DNA from: a virus
Lineage: Duplodnaviria; Heunggongvirae; Uroviricota; Caudoviricetes
Reading direction: 5' to 3' (one strand)
DNA: 11,623 nucleotides
Virus record (IMG/VR): IMGVR_UViG_2681813228_000014
Positions 3,074 to 7,515 of this stretch are shown piece by piece. Position numbers and translations under genes: made by a program. The stretch's first letter is position 1. The number at the start of each line of letters is the position of its first letter. The notes under the pieces are model-generated. The model ran no database searches. It was not told the DNA's origin and saw nothing but the letters and a program-made list of their open reading frames with translations.

Positions 3074-3247
3074 TCATTCGCGAACTACCTTGAAACCGAG
3101 CCTTTCAAGGTATTCAATGAATGCCTCGATAGATAAAATTACATGATCATCAGGGATTAACGTTGTGTAGACAACTTTCCCATTCTCAACGCGCACAGCA
3201 TAGAGGCCATTTTCACTAAAAATTTCACGCAATTCTTCGATTTTCAT
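3074..3247 (-). CDS. Small hypothetical protein (57 aa)
   Basis: ATG at 3247 preceded by AAGGA; MKIEELREIFSENGLYAVRVENGKVVYTTLIPDDHVILSIEAFIEYLERLGFKVVRE. No family recognised. Confidence 0.35.
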   Translation of the reverse strand: MKIEELREIFSENGLYAVRVENGKVVYTTLIPDDHVILSIEAFIEYLERLGFKVVRE

Positions 3248-3436
3248 CTTCAGAATCCTTCCAGATAAATAGCTCTTCCCCTTCGGGGTCCATCCCTCTT
3301 CTCCCTGCGCGCTACTTAAGAGCCTCGATTCTAGCCGTGAAGACATACCGATCAACAGCAATAAGCCACCTGAATAACAGAATCAGCCAACCACATCAGT
3401 ACAACCAGATGCATCATACTCACCGAAAATAAACAA

Positions 3437-3460
3437 CAAAAAACCCGCCGAAGCGGGTTT
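3437..3460 (-). terminator. Rho-independent terminator after the Doc-family gene
   Basis: AAACCCGC / CGAA / GCGGGTTT stem followed on the minus strand by a U-rich run; immediately 3' of the doc stop at 3476. Confidence 0.55.
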
Positions 3461-3475
3461 TCATTGGAAGCACCT

Positions 3476-3961
3476 TTAGTTTTGCTGTTCCATTTTAAAC
3501 TTGATAGTTTCATACAAAACAATAGTTGCGCCTGTTTTACATAATTCCCGGCTGTCATACGCGCGAGACCAATAACACAACCAGTTCTCGAGATCTTCTC
3601 GAGTATAGGTTTTGCAGGCCAGTCCCTCTGCCATTTCCACGATTTCATCGCCTGGTGCTGTTAATTCATAGCCATTCAACAACAAGAAGACGTAACCAGC
3701 CATCATAGCTGTTCGTTTGTTCGCATTAGCAAACGGATGATTCTGAATCAGACTTTCAATCAATACCGATGCCAGTACAAACATGTCATTAGTCTGTTCA
3801 TACCATCGAACCATGCTGGGACGGGCCTGAGAAGAACTTAAGTTATCTGGACTCAGAACACCAACGAGCTCATCTGGCGTCTGTAATTCAATTAGGGAAC
3901 GATTGATTTCAACAAGATCATCAACCGTAAGGTAATGCACTCCTTCAACAATCTCAGCCAT
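3476..3961 (-). CDS. doc: Doc (death-on-curing) / Fic-family toxin
   Basis: Contains HPFANANKRTA, matching the Doc-type Fic motif HxFx(D/N)(A/G)NKR. Start taken at ATG 3961; the ORF track begins at an in-frame TTG at 3970. Confidence 0.8.
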   Translation of the reverse strand: MAEIVEGVHYLTVDDLVEINRSLIELQTPDELVGVLSPDNLSSSQARPSMVRWYEQTNDMFVLASVLIESLIQNHPFANANKRTAMMAGYVFLLLNGYELTAPGDEIVEMAEGLACKTYTREDLENWLCYWSRAYDSRELCKTGATIVLYETIKFKMEQQN

Positions 3962-3979
3962 AGAGCACAATACCCATCA

Positions 3980-4159
3980 TTACACTTTTGAAAGTTCTTC
4001 CATTGCCTTCTCGTAACGAGAAAAACCGAAATCGAAAGCATTTTTCACCTGCTCACGATGAGTGCAATTTTCATCGATAGCCGGGCGCGGAGCTGCCACA
4101 ACGCTTTTATCGCGAGGGGGAATAGTCAATCGCGGGTGTTTTTTTAGTGCGTAGCTCAT
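3980..4159 (-). CDS. Putative antitoxin or partner of Doc (59 aa; not in the ORF track because under 60 aa)
   Basis: Hand-translated: MSYALKKHPRLTIPPRDKSVVAAPRPAIDENCTHREQVKNAFDFGFSRYEKAMEELSKV. ATG at 4159 preceded by AAGGGGGG; stop 18 nt before the doc ATG, in the same frame. Does not resemble Phd from memory. Confidence 0.5.
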   Translation of the reverse strand: MSYALKKHPRLTIPPRDKSVVAAPRPAIDENCTHREQVKNAFDFGFSRYEKAMEELSKV

Positions 4160-4583: not shown

Positions 4584-4610
4584 GAAATTGGCCTCAGATT
4601 AATGTTAAGC
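4540..4610 (+). ncRNA. sok: Expected position of a Sok-like antisense RNA (approximate)
   Basis: Inferred only from hok/sok architecture, in which the antisense RNA overlaps the mok start region. No promoter or terminator was confidently identified. Confidence 0.2.
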
Positions 4611-5083
4611 GTCTTGCCGGACGCGTAATGTTAACTGGGGCTTTTCTCTATCTGCCTTTTGGTGTTCATGCCTGAGGCAGATAGCCTCAAGCACCCGCAG
4701 CAATTCTAACTATCCAATAGATCAATGCCAACTTCTTTTCCTGCAACATCTCTCATCATAAGTGACCCAAATTCATCCAATCAGCACAAAAGAAACATTT
4801 AAAGCGTGAATGCTACCGAACGTTCATTTCAATTACATCGTTTTGATTTTTAACAGTTTTCACCTCAACAAATCAAATGGCATTAGCATTCATCATGGAA
4901 GAAAGACTGATAAAAATGATCATTTTCAATGACTTATGATCACACCGGGTATTGCCAAGTCATTCCTTTTACGCCAGGATACCCACAAGTGAGTAGTCGA
5001 GGAGAGTTTGCCAATTTTTGCGATATAAATTTCAATGTCCGAAGAACCATTAATTGTTAATTGATTCTGTATAAGGTATTAAC

Positions 5084-6181
5084 ATGACAATTTCATATAT
5101 TCCTATTCTGAAAGCGAAACGTTCTGAGTTATCAGCTTTATCGCAGCTATCCATTGAAAAGAAATCAAAAATTTTGCCATTACTCGAAATTGAACCAGTG
5201 CCAATTGACCCTGATTCAGGTATTGCCTTAAAGAGTTATAACGAGACTCTTATAGAGTTCGGAAAGAAAGTCTCAAAATCTTGCTCAGATATGCAAGGTG
5301 TTTATATTGATGGATTATTAATTGAAGAGCATTTTATTTCTCCTGAAGATCATTACCCTATAATAAATGCGGTTAATCAAGTTAGAGATATGGGGATAAG
5401 AGTTATTCCTGTCAGTTCACCAACTCGCCCATCTAACTATAAAAGAGCGATTGATGAATTAATGCAGAATGAAATATGCTTGAGATTAACCACGTTAGAT
5501 CTGGTTAACCCACAATTAATAACGCATTACATTAATCATCTGGGAATTCCTTTATCAAATATTGATATAATTATTGACTTAAGAGATGAGTTAACCGAGG
5601 ATAAAATTAATTCCGGCGAACTATATACTTTGGCAATGGGATTGATAAACAATCTGGCGCACCTCAATGAATACAGAAAAGTGATTCTTTCTGGGGGTTC
5701 ATTTCCTACAGATCTCAGTGATATTTCTGTTGGTCTATATTCTCAACCTCGAATCGAGTGGATTTTATGGCAGAGTTTAATGAATAGAAAAGAACTTGCC
5801 AGAAATGTGATTTATAGTGATTATGGAGTACAGCACCCCGACTTTAATAGGCTTTCGACGCGATTCCCTAGCGTATCTGCCAGCGTCAGATACTCTGGAG
5901 ATAATGACTTTTGGGTATTTCGAGGAAGAGTAGCTAATCGCTTTGGTTATGAACAATATGGTAAACATAGTGAGGATATTCTTGCTCATCGAGAATATTC
6001 AGGGCCTACATTCTGTGCGGGAGATAGAGACATAGAATATTATGCAAACGAGTATCAAGCCTACAAAGCCAATCCCTCTGGTAACTATAAATTTGGTAGC
6101 CCAGAGGTATGGCGTAGGATTGGGCAAAACCATCACATAACTAAGGTTGTTGAGCAACTCGCCACTCTTTACGGGCTTTAA
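5084..6181 (+). CDS. Protein of unknown function (365 aa), first gene of an AT-rich accessory cassette
   Basis: Long intact ORF with AAGG Shine-Dalgarno about 9 nt upstream of the ATG; visibly AT-rich compared with flanking phage genes; no motif I can name. Possibly related to families annotated as beta or sce7725-type, from memory only. Confidence 0.75.
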   Translation: MTISYIPILKAKRSELSALSQLSIEKKSKILPLLEIEPVPIDPDSGIALKSYNETLIEFGKKVSKSCSDMQGVYIDGLLIEEHFISPEDHYPIINAVNQVRDMGIRVIPVSSPTRPSNYKRAIDELMQNEICLRLTTLDLVNPQLITHYINHLGIPLSNIDIIIDLRDELTEDKINSGELYTLAMGLINNLAHLNEYRKVILSGGSFPTDLSDISVGLYSQPRIEWILWQSLMNRKELARNVIYSDYGVQHPDFNRLSTRFPSVSASVRYSGDNDFWVFRGRVANRFGYEQYGKHSEDILAHREYSGPTFCAGDRDIEYYANEYQAYKANPSGNYKFGSPEVWRRIGQNHHITKVVEQLATLYGL

Positions 6182-6719
6182 GTTTAACTCGAACAGCTTC
6201 ACGAAGCTCGCCAACATCCATACTATTGGCGAGTTTTGACCATAAGACGCGTTTAGGTTTATTTTTCAAATTCTGTAGCTCCCCTACATCACTTAATAGG
6301 GAAAGCAATTCATCTTTCCAAAGAAGCATTGTTAAGGAAAGTTTGTCCACTTGTGGATTCAACTTGCTAGTTCGAATTGTTTTTAAATGGATACCTTGCC
6401 GTGCACCTTGCGTAACTTGCTTTATCCCCCACCATGATGGAACTATGCTTAAAGCATCATAAAGATGGCAATCAGAGACAACCAAAGTTACTTTATCCAT
6501 CACTGATGAGTAATGTTGCACCTGCGCTGGTAATCTGAGCAAGTTATCACTCTTGCTCTTCAACTCATAACCATGTATAAGCCCATTGATCACTGCTATA
6601 TCAGCTCTGCTAGCCCCTAGATTCATCGTAAACTCATCAATGATTAGGGTGTCAGGATCTTTATGATGATCTCTCAGAATCTTGGCATGCACAGCCTTTC
6701 TTACATCAATGTCTCTCAT
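6141..6719 (-). CDS. Putative PD-(D/E)xK-type nuclease-like protein (192 aa), convergent partner of the 365-aa gene
   Basis: Contains IIDEF ... ADIAVINGLIHGYELKSK, a D ... D-x13-E-x-K arrangement typical of the restriction-endonuclease-like fold. Its 3' end overlaps the 365-aa gene by 41 bp (6141-6181). Possibly sce7726-type, from memory only. Confidence 0.75.
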   Translation of the reverse strand: MRDIDVRKAVHAKILRDHHKDPDTLIIDEFTMNLGASRADIAVINGLIHGYELKSKSDNLLRLPAQVQHYSSVMDKVTLVVSDCHLYDALSIVPSWWGIKQVTQGARQGIHLKTIRTSKLNPQVDKLSLTMLLWKDELLSLLSDVGELQNLKNKPKRVLWSKLANSMDVGELREAVRVKLKARKEWRVAQQP

Positions 6720-7041
6720 ACCATAGTTGCGCTTTCATCGACTCTCTCAAGCCATGATTCTATATCATGGTTCGCATGAATGCCATTTGATATGACCAGT
6801 GGTTAAACATTGCACAGAAAAGTGGATGTGTATTTTAACAAAAGCAATGACGGCTAACCATGTTGGTATGTCGATAAAATGTTTCAACGTAAGCATTATC
6901 TGTTCCGCCCTTTCGGGCGGCCTCCTGATGTTCTGAGGGTGCAGAAATCCCTCCGGTTAAGGATTAAATTTTATTTACAGAACTGAATTTAATTATTCAG
7001 ATATACGTATCTGTAACCTTACTAACCTACTCACTGGATGC

Positions 7042-7515
7042 CTATTTCATAAAAATAATCCAGTGGGTTTTATCGTTTTTTCCTGTTCGTTGACCGATAA
7101 CAGGTTTTCTGTCGGTCAGTGCCAATATCTGGCGAACAGGTATTTGCGTTTCATTCCATTTAAAAATCAGAACGCCGTATGGACGCAACACACGAAAGGC
7201 TTCTTTAAATCCCTGCCGCAAATCATCACGCCAGGTATCTTTATTCAGCCGTCCATATTTCTTTCCCATCCTGGCGTTATCACCAACACGCTCAAGATGC
7301 GGAGGATCGAATATAACCATCGAAAAAGATGCGTCTGCAAATGGTAGTGCACGAAAATCAGCTATCAGATCAGGACTGATAATCAGGCGTCGTCCATCAC
7401 ACAATGTGTGCTCTTCCTTTCTGATATCGCTAAATATCGCCCGGTCGTCATTCTTATCGAACCAGAACATGCGACTGCCACAGCACATATCAAGAATGGT
7501 TGCCGGTGCACTCAC
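7042..7515 (-). CDS. Small SAM-dependent methyltransferase, probable DNA N6-adenine (or N4-cytosine) type
   Basis: Motif I-like DMCCGS near the N-terminus and motif IV VIFDPPH. GTG start at 7515 overlaps the upstream stop (GTGA); an ATG at 7488 is an alternative start. Confidence 0.65.
   Translation of the reverse strand: MSAPATILDMCCGSRMFWFDKNDDRAIFSDIRKEEHTLCDGRRLIISPDLIADFRALPFADASFSMVIFDPPHLERVGDNARMGKKYGRLNKDTWRDDLRQGFKEAFRVLRPYGVLIFKWNETQIPVRQILALTDRKPVIGQRTGKNDKTHWIIFMK

Follow-up and report, generated by a model that had tools for sequence, protein, structure and literature searches.

A two-slot cargo hotspot around hok/sok in Rac/Qin-type lambdoid prophages and its convergent beta/cII gene pair

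What accumulates between the replication genes and the Q gene of a lambdoid prophage, and does it amount to anti-phage defence? The question is raised by a stretch of 11,623 nucleotides from IMG/VR virus record IMGVR_UViG_2681813228_000014, hereafter the window, which comprises the immunity-to-Q region of a Rac-type lambdoid prophage of Escherichia coli and is 100% identical to sequence of E. coli O121 strain RM8352, barring an insertion sequence (IS) element, IS3, found in RM8352 at window positions 4561-4563. The early-right operon lies on the minus strand and, reading along that strand from 7515 to 3074, there follow a gene for a 157-aa methyltransferase, an AT-rich cassette, hok/mok/sok, a 59-aa gene with Doc, and a rem-like open reading frame (ORF); past the interval come DUF1367, DUF1364 and a Q-like antiterminator gene. 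The original prediction, made from the letters of the sequence, was that four modules (methyltransferase, AT-rich cassette, hok/mok and Doc) are stacked at a single prophage defence hotspot. Profile searches and Rfam recovered all four, read along the minus strand, in the order and at the places claimed; the small rem-like ORF had gone unmentioned. Gene calls, collected in Table 1, draw on the RefSeq annotation of RM8352, Pfam, PHROG, PADLOC, NCBIfam/TIGRFAM and Rfam. We consider it likely that Rac/Qin-type lambdoid prophages exchange cargo by recombination in this interval, a hotspot with two slots placed around hok/sok, and that the beta/cII gene pair of its AT-rich cassette is an anti-phage system.

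The case for a hotspot rests on a blastn comparison of the window with 11 related Rac/Qin-type prophages. The anchors that they share are only short, with identities of 83-96%, and unrelated cargo lies between them. They comprise positions 2400-3073, 3171-3320 (rem), 4280-4708 (hok/sok), 6905-7000 (a 96-bp junction) and 7522-7943 (DUF977). The last of these is found in all 11 prophages at 83-91% identity; the rem segment is common to loci L004, L005, L006 and L009, the DUF1367 flank to one subset (L002, L003 and L012), and the methyltransferase segment, 7028-7521, is shared in some. The distance between hok and DUF977, 3.6 kb in the window, is as short as 869 bp and as long as about 8 kb among E. 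coli records sampled at even spacing. An interval conserved among related prophages, with no variable cargo, had been named as the outcome that would speak against a hotspot; in the 11 relatives the interval is not conserved and the cargo differs. Two parts of the original prediction needed to be redrawn. There is not one variable position, but two variable slots split by hok/sok, and hok/sok itself is not variable cargo but a near-universal anchor between them: of 5,426 E. coli genomes, 4,385 contain its 3' segment.

The same set of genomes demonstrates that the modules travel separately. With coverage of at least 80% of the segment as the threshold, the cassette occurs in 93 of them, the Doc module in 118 and the whole stack (2400-8000) in only eight and, therefore, the modules assort independently. 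Among 25 viral contigs carrying a 99-100% identical cII gene, hok adjoins the cassette in every contig that reaches hok (one shows beta and cII only), the Doc module is present in none and the methyltransferase in two. Strain 96_1414B carries the same cassette in the same slot with a replication module, nin genes and Q that are all different, and the same cassette occupies the same slot in phage Rac-SA53.

The contents of the slots bear on the second half of the question. In the relatives, the DUF977-hok slot holds one of QueH, an alpha/beta hydrolase, an AIPR protein, a DUF5677 protein, a ParA-family protein or a KilA-N protein, or else ead/Ea22 with HNH and DUF551 genes, DUF7167 and DUF4406 sets, flxA, ydfV and relBE (in Qin), or nothing (the 869-bp case). 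In the hok-nin/Q slot the relatives have rem, DUF1971 or a helix-turn-helix (HTH)-plus-partner pair, and the window has the Doc module. PADLOC models of known defence systems were matched by the AIPR protein (AbiU-like, 6.9e-24), the KilA-N protein (BstA-like, 3.2e-21) and the HTH-plus-partner pair (RmrA, 6.2e-105; RmrT, 4.6e-25), that is by four of the ten alternative cargo proteins scanned, representing three modules, as well as by beta and cII of the window. These are bare counts, and many other cargo genes matched no such model, much of the cargo being unannotated or metabolic. Thus conserved flanks with variable cargo, as expected of a prophage defence hotspot, are confirmed and, as regards defence, what is shown is an accessory hotspot rich in toxin and defence modules.

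We envisage a hotspot flanked by the replication block (ydaU-ydaV-DUF1627-DUF977) on one side and the nin/Q block on the other, in which self-contained modules would be exchanged by homologous recombination at DUF977, the 96-bp junction, hok/sok, a terminator repeat and rem/DUF1367. In the window, slot A, from DUF977 to hok, holds an orphan methyltransferase translationally coupled to the early operon together with an AT-rich beta/cII pair, probably a recent acquisition, and slot B, from hok to rem, a Doc toxin with a conserved 59-aa partner that is not of the Phd family. Such an arrangement resembles the P2/P4 defence hotspots (PMC9122126) in having conserved flanks and many alternative arrangements at one position of a temperate element, with a cargo that includes both known defence systems and toxin-antitoxin loci. 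It differs in that the element is a Rac/Qin lambdoid prophage, in that there are two slots split by the hok/sok anchor, and in that defence enrichment is unquantified here. A closer parallel is relBE-hokD of the K-12 prophage Qin, which occupies the homologous place, with DUF977/methyltransferase on one side and the Q block on the other, and where a type II toxin-antitoxin pair is stacked with the same hok locus; there, however, relBE lies upstream of hok whereas Doc and its 59-aa partner lie downstream of hok in the window, and Qin carries no beta/cII. Open-access literature on lambdoid defence hotspots yielded no description of this hotspot.

The AT-rich cassette, whose boundaries were set by blastn against the 11 related prophages, had been called uncharacterised. 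It is identifiable from PADLOC, BLASTP and gene layout as the beta-cII part of the Gop-beta-cII locus of satellite phage P4, without gop; the depositors of Rac-SA53 had labelled these two genes 'beta' and 'CII phage-like protein', and the precomputed Pfam label of the 192-aa family is PF26915, Phage_P4_cII. The two genes are convergent and their coding sequences overlap by 41 nt at the 3' ends (6141-6181). AlphaFold2 models of both proteins are confident, with predicted local distance difference test (pLDDT) values of 94 for the cII-family protein and 92 for beta. A Foldseek search with the cII-family model gave no significant PDB match, and PDB sequence searches with the two proteins gave nothing usable. 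Residues E29, D40, E52 and K54 of the cII-family protein are invariant in 35 homologues and correspond to the PD-(D/E)xK signature, on which basis we read it as a predicted active nuclease bearing an extra C-terminal helical domain. The best PADLOC model for the window beta is PD-Lambda-2_C (PDLC03983, 1.8e-41; PDLC03984, 1.7e-38), the P4 beta model reaching only 2e-4; R134, D165 and D246 are among the invariant residues of beta.

The 375 bp upstream of beta contain ORFs of only 40 and 43 aa, and Pfam searches at E up to 10 with the small ORFs flanking the cassette returned nothing meaningful. A 16-nt inverted repeat (4869-4884/6779-6794), upstream of both genes, was considered as a shared operator and rejected: the maximum in shuffled sequence was 17 nt, and the repeat was not recapitulated in 15 related loci.

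P4 carries gop at 247-648(+), beta at 651-1718(+) and cII at 1746-2540(-), such that beta and cII are convergent there as in the window, and both loci are located in a cargo hotspot of a mobile element. By BLASTP, the window beta shares 23% identity with P4 beta over its full length (E 1e-8) and the cII-family protein 28% identity with P4 cII over the N-terminal 162 residues (E 2e-17). The differences are considerable. The window element is a lambdoid prophage and not a P4 satellite, it carries no gop, its cII-family protein has 192 aa compared with 264 aa in P4, its beta fits the PD-Lambda-2_C models far better than that of P4 beta, and the 41-nt coding overlap contrasts with a 27-nt spacing in P4, where a terminator separates the two genes. 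The idea of a hidden or decayed gop upstream of beta was abandoned, given that tblastn with P4 Gop found nothing better than E 1 in the window and that PADLOC, run on the interval's ten annotated proteins, matched none of them to gop; for the small ORFs upstream of beta the gop search was by tblastn only.

Rousset et al. 2022 (PMC9122126), who cite Ghisotti 1990 for the P4 gop-beta-cII locus, showed that it lies in the P4 defence hotspot and confers protection against lambda and P1, and a phage accessory gene triggers killing by the Gop-beta-cII locus (preprint, bioRxiv 10.1101/2023.04.06.535777). The second relative, PD-lambda-2, has a beta-like third component, and it is the PADLOC model for this component that the window beta fits best; the third gene is needed for defence and not for toxin neutralisation (Vassallo et al. 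2022, PMC9519451). The window differs in having neither the HigB-like toxin (A) nor the Xre-peptidase (B): no match to PADLOC PD-Lambda-2_A or _B was obtained in the interval, although these models detect both in locus L036. On sequence grounds we regard the window pair as the gop-less core of a family that includes P4 Gop-beta-cII and PD-lambda-2.

The extent of this family emerged from a scan for cII relatives in one genome per species, which yielded 450 loci of which the best 80 were examined. A beta gene lies directly downstream and convergent in 77 of the 80, and in two of the three exceptions the contig ends within 190 bp of cII, leaving no room for beta. In all but two of the 77 pairs, that is in 75, the 3' ends of the coding sequences share 11-158 nt. 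To judge from record titles the loci occur in Pseudomonadota, Myxococcota, Acidobacteriota, Bacillota, Chloroflexota and Patescibacteria and, further, in Gastranaerophilales, Actinomycetota, Thermodesulfobacteriota, Armatimonadota and Gemmatimonadota. In most of the loci examined the pair stands alone. PD-lambda-2 A and B genes lie upstream of beta in 12 of the 77, as PADLOC confirms in L036, and clustering of ORFs around the pair revealed them as its sole recurrent partners; these 12 loci add to A/B/C a convergent cII-family gene which is outside the published three-gene description. Since beta/cII is present in both P4 Gop-beta-cII and PD-lambda-2-type loci, the pair is their common denominator. 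It also occurs elsewhere as phage cargo, between Rz and the terminase gene Nu1 in another E. coli prophage and adjoining the integrase in a Vibrio prophage, and relatives are encoded in 134 IMG/VR viral contigs.

That the pairing is convergent in 77 of 80 loci suggests that the two genes form an autonomous core. We advance only tentatively, as a proposal that may well fail, the wider view that the convergent pair is an autonomous two-gene anti-phage system present in at least 10 phyla, an ancestral core that P4 supplemented with Gop and PD-lambda-2-type loci with HigB and an Xre-peptidase. The antisense overlap is unusually well conserved and may be regulatory; it might set, and so could tune, the ratio of the beta and cII products. 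Open-access literature on sce7726 and PF14350 contained no mechanistic study of the pair.

As an anti-phage system the beta/cII pair would be expressed by the prophage in the lysogen, the PD-(D/E)xK protein acting as a nucleic-acid-cleaving effector and the predicted TIM barrel of beta possibly as sensor or regulator. A defence function for this gop-less pair we infer by analogy with its relatives, and several points weigh against it and against a defensive role of the interval at large. Gop, the known toxic component in P4, is absent from the window, and by component list the window falls short of both the gop_beta_cll and the PD-Lambda-2 definitions. The TIM-barrel match of beta is generic and indicates no chemistry. 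A promoter scan found no sigma-70-like site upstream of beta, and its total of nine sites is below the 11.6 obtained from shuffled sequence. For the interval as a whole, the QueH, alpha/beta hydrolase, ead/Ea22, DUF5677 and DUF7167 cargo carries no defence annotation, the frequency of defence genes in the slots is given without an enrichment test against the genome background, and work on another such prophage links hok/sok to the release of phage and not to defence (PMC8621323).

A different role for the cII-family protein is suggested by the methyltransferase, which matches PADLOC type II models and lies 322 bp from this predicted restriction-endonuclease-fold protein, such that the two could be a restriction-modification pair to which beta is accessory. 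We consider this highly improbable, and the candidate was rejected on the independent assortment of its parts. The methyltransferase occurs without the cassette in related prophages L002, L004 and L005, and it is missing beside the same cassette in L018, Rac-SA53 and 23 of the 25 viral contigs; moreover, the invariable partner of cII in 77 of 80 loci is beta, and no flanking ORFs recur around the pair besides the PD-lambda-2 A/B genes. With DUF977 and an independently assorting cII-family gene as its neighbours, the methyltransferase is classed as a putative orphan. It carries motif I as ILDMCCGS and motif IV as FDPPH, has a weak Methyltransf_11 match in Pfam, and yielded nothing usable in a PDB sequence search; its GTG start overlaps the DUF977 stop codon. 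Its role would most likely be self-protective methylation of the phage DNA against restriction, at the time when the early genes are expressed.

Between this gene and the cassette lies the 96-bp junction. It is 88-95% identical in L002, L003, L005 and L007, next to different cargo, is always directly upstream of the differing cargo genes, and accounts for an end of the cassette query that matches about 2,488 E. coli genomes. No match was found in Rfam, and the junction could be a recombination boundary or an RNA element.

The anchor that splits the two slots is identified as a hok/sok type I toxin-antitoxin locus by its hok/mok reading frames and structured leader. The RF01794 match, which extends over the full model, is on the hok strand, and Sok is read from this match and not from a mapped transcript. 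A promoter-like site, TTGGCA-17-TAGAAT (10/12), lies just upstream of the leader at 4731-4703, and RefSeq places hokD at the matching position in RM8352. In that strain the otherwise identical locus carries IS3 in the mok/hok leader (window 4561-4563; L001 8165-9422), an insertion that has probably cut hok off from its promoter and freed it of control by sok. The nearest studied counterpart is hokW-sokW of Sakai prophage Sp5, likewise a hok/sok type I locus in a lambdoid prophage of pathogenic E. coli, which raises phage release after induction (PMC8621323). It differs in that the locus identical to the window's is interrupted by IS3 in RM8352 and that hok/sok function in the window is read from sequence alone.

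The effect of hokW-sokW on release is one reason to ask whether the modules serve the life cycle and maintenance of the prophage itself, with hok/sok assisting lysis and release, Doc and its partner penalising loss of the prophage as an addiction module does on the plasmid-prophage P1, the methyltransferase guarding phage DNA against restriction, and beta/cII modulating lysogeny. The near-universal presence of hok/sok in this class of prophage would fit a backbone function, the overlap of the methyltransferase start with the DUF977 stop points to coexpression with early lytic genes, Doc of P1 is a classic addiction toxin, and the historical P4 gene name 'cII' implies lysogeny modulation. We nevertheless judge it unlikely as an account of the interval. 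AbiU-like, BstA-like and RmrTA systems occupy the same slots elsewhere, the P4 locus confers protection, and beta/cII occurs at unrelated prophage positions and in many phyla, independently of any single phage circuit. For the toxin-antitoxin modules the life-cycle and defence readings are not mutually exclusive: hok/sok and Doc may contribute to prophage retention, to lysis assistance (PMC8621323) or to abortive infection.

Doc itself is intact, with the motif HPFANANKR which, in an alignment to PDB 9vzc, fits the Fic-type HxFx(D/N)(A/G)NKR; RefSeq places its start at an ATG nine bases downstream of the TTG. As in Phd/Doc of P1, a Fic-fold toxin with this motif is preceded in its operon by a small gene, but the upstream protein of the window is not Phd/YefM and belongs to PHROG 2208. 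For this 59-aa protein there was no Pfam match at E up to 10, no PDB sequence match and no detectable similarity to Phd/YefM. Homologues with 53-56% identity are encoded 3-4 nt upstream of Doc-family toxins in Sirocco and LPPA56, two Pseudomonas phages of a different family, and the 59-aa family thus precedes Doc genes in E. coli prophages and Pseudomonas phages alike. Given this recurrence, the protein is read as a conserved partner of this Doc subfamily and, presumably, as its antitoxin, which would make PHROG 2208 a candidate for a new antitoxin family for Doc.

The original prediction assigned to each module its own terminator or hairpin. This is borne out cleanly by Doc alone: at the 3' side of the methyltransferase there is a GC hairpin with no U-run (fold z -2.6), the hairpin and UUUU 3' of beta lie within the cII coding region (z -2.9), and hok has a degenerate copy. 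The last is part of an 86%-identical direct repeat of the terminator (3438-3459 and 4281-4302), with the second copy at the hok 3' end, so that the copies bracket the Doc module, an arrangement that fits insertion or recombinational exchange of the module at a terminator. The weakened stem of the hok-proximal copy could permit read-through from hok into the doc operon.

Finally, the interval could represent decaying junk in a cryptic prophage, its insertions without selected function. IS elements do occur in this region of relatives (IS3 in RM8352, IS1 in strain 55989 and Rac-SA53, and IS66/ISNCY in strain 1223), and the rem-like ORF is a diverged fragment, showing 73% identity to the first 26 residues of Qin Rem. 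All module ORFs are, however, intact with their catalytic or signature residues conserved, hok/sok fits the full Rfam model, and copies of the cassette from many strains and viral contigs agree at 99-100% identity, one of its carriers being Rac-SA53, which was deposited as a complete phage genome. We therefore regard decay as a distinctly improbable explanation.

Several elements outside the interval were also observed. Downstream of Q (887-1303, 1356-1554) Rfam detects isrK (77.5 bits), a C4 antisense RNA (71 bits) and its a1/b1 target (50 bits) and, with the isrK/C4 elements upstream of an ORF6N/antirepressor-like gene, this points to an antisense-controlled module in the style of P1/P7. Two prophage-borne small RNA genes of the pathogenic E. 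coli type lie at 181-435, AgvB (anti-GcvB) on the plus strand with 96.5 bits and STnc100 on the minus strand with 146.8 bits. An Rfam tRNA-like match (37.3 bits) occurs at 522-581, where RefSeq places tRNA-Met at the equivalent RM8352 position; ARAGORN found no tRNA over the window. In Rac-SA53 (L101 1119-2350) the pertussis-like toxin pair eplA/eplB downstream of Q constitutes another cargo position in this type of phage.

Table 1. Features of the window and of the related loci discussed in the text (positions refer to the window unless a locus is named)
Feature	Position	Strand	Evidence
AT-rich variable module: convergent beta/cII pair and flanking non-coding DNA	4709-6904		37.8% GC vs 49-52% in flanks
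beta-family protein, 365 aa, predicted TIM barrel	5084-6181	+	PF14350 3.8e-52, full length
P4-cII/sce7726-family protein, 192 aa, predicted PD-(D/E)xK nuclease domain and C-terminal helical domain	6141-6719	-	NF033832 1.7e-56; PADLOC cll 2.4e-28
Small S-adenosylmethionine (SAM)-dependent methyltransferase, 157 aa, putative orphan DNA methyltransferase	7042-7515	-	PADLOC MTase_II 1.5e-71, oMTase 2.2e-49; PHROG 954 'DNA methyltransferase' 3.8e-85
Conserved intergenic junction with GC hairpin (ggccgcccgaaagggcgg), right boundary of cassette	6905-7000 (96 bp)		blastn; hairpin fold z -2.59
mok, 70 aa (from 4583), and overlapping hok toxin, 51 aa (4371-4526)	4371-4583	-	PF01848 8.9e-23; PHROG 251 1.4e-32
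hok mRNA leader / sok region	4521-4696	-	Rfam RF01794 119.8 bits, E 1.9e-27, model positions 1-157 (full length), gathering score 59
Doc (Fic-fold) toxin, intact HPFANANKR	3476-3970	-	TIGR01550 2.2e-36; PF02661 7.5e-12; PDB 9vzc Doc-family protein 6.9e-13
59-aa gene, putative antitoxin	3980-4159	-	ends 9 nt before doc; PHROG 2208 2.7e-42 (no assigned function)
Intrinsic terminator of doc operon	3439-3462	-	terminator scan; fold z -2.82
rem-like small ORF, 57 aa from internal ATG, part of left anchor	3074-3247	-	PHROG 340 5.5e-19
DUF977 gene, right-hand anchor of hotspot	7512-7943	-	PF06163 9.3e-30
DUF1367 (NinB-like) gene, left-hand flank	2415-3026	-	PF07105 9.1e-99
DUF1627 gene	7944-8723	-	early-right operon
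ydaV	8727-9473	-	early-right operon
ydaU	9480-10337	-	early-right operon
ydaT	10350-10772	-	early-right operon
cro	10756-11070	-	early-right operon
PD-lambda-2-type A/B/C with convergent cII-family gene	L036 5001-8122; also L053, L057, L059, L063, L073, L074, L089, L091, L092, L095, L098		
Loci of 59-aa protein homologues	L099 1450-1671; L100 1501-1674		

Hotspots of prophages and satellites, hok/sok, Doc and orphan phage methyltransferases are all established, the toxin modules belong to textbook families, and what we describe is a real but fairly ordinary prophage cargo hotspot that does not overturn current thinking. Its interest lies elsewhere. Prophage hotspots are a productive source of new anti-phage systems, and this two-slot hotspot of Rac/Qin-type prophages, a class carried by most E. 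coli genomes, provides a handle for mining the cargo located between DUF977, hok and rem/DUF1367. The most useful lead is beta/cII, for which predicted TIM-barrel and restriction-endonuclease-like nuclease folds are reported here, and which, as a shared and widely distributed two-gene core, joins the validated but mechanistically opaque Gop-beta-cII and PD-lambda-2 systems. If the two-gene core proves to be real, the current three-gene definitions would overlook the greater part of the family, the copy described here among them.

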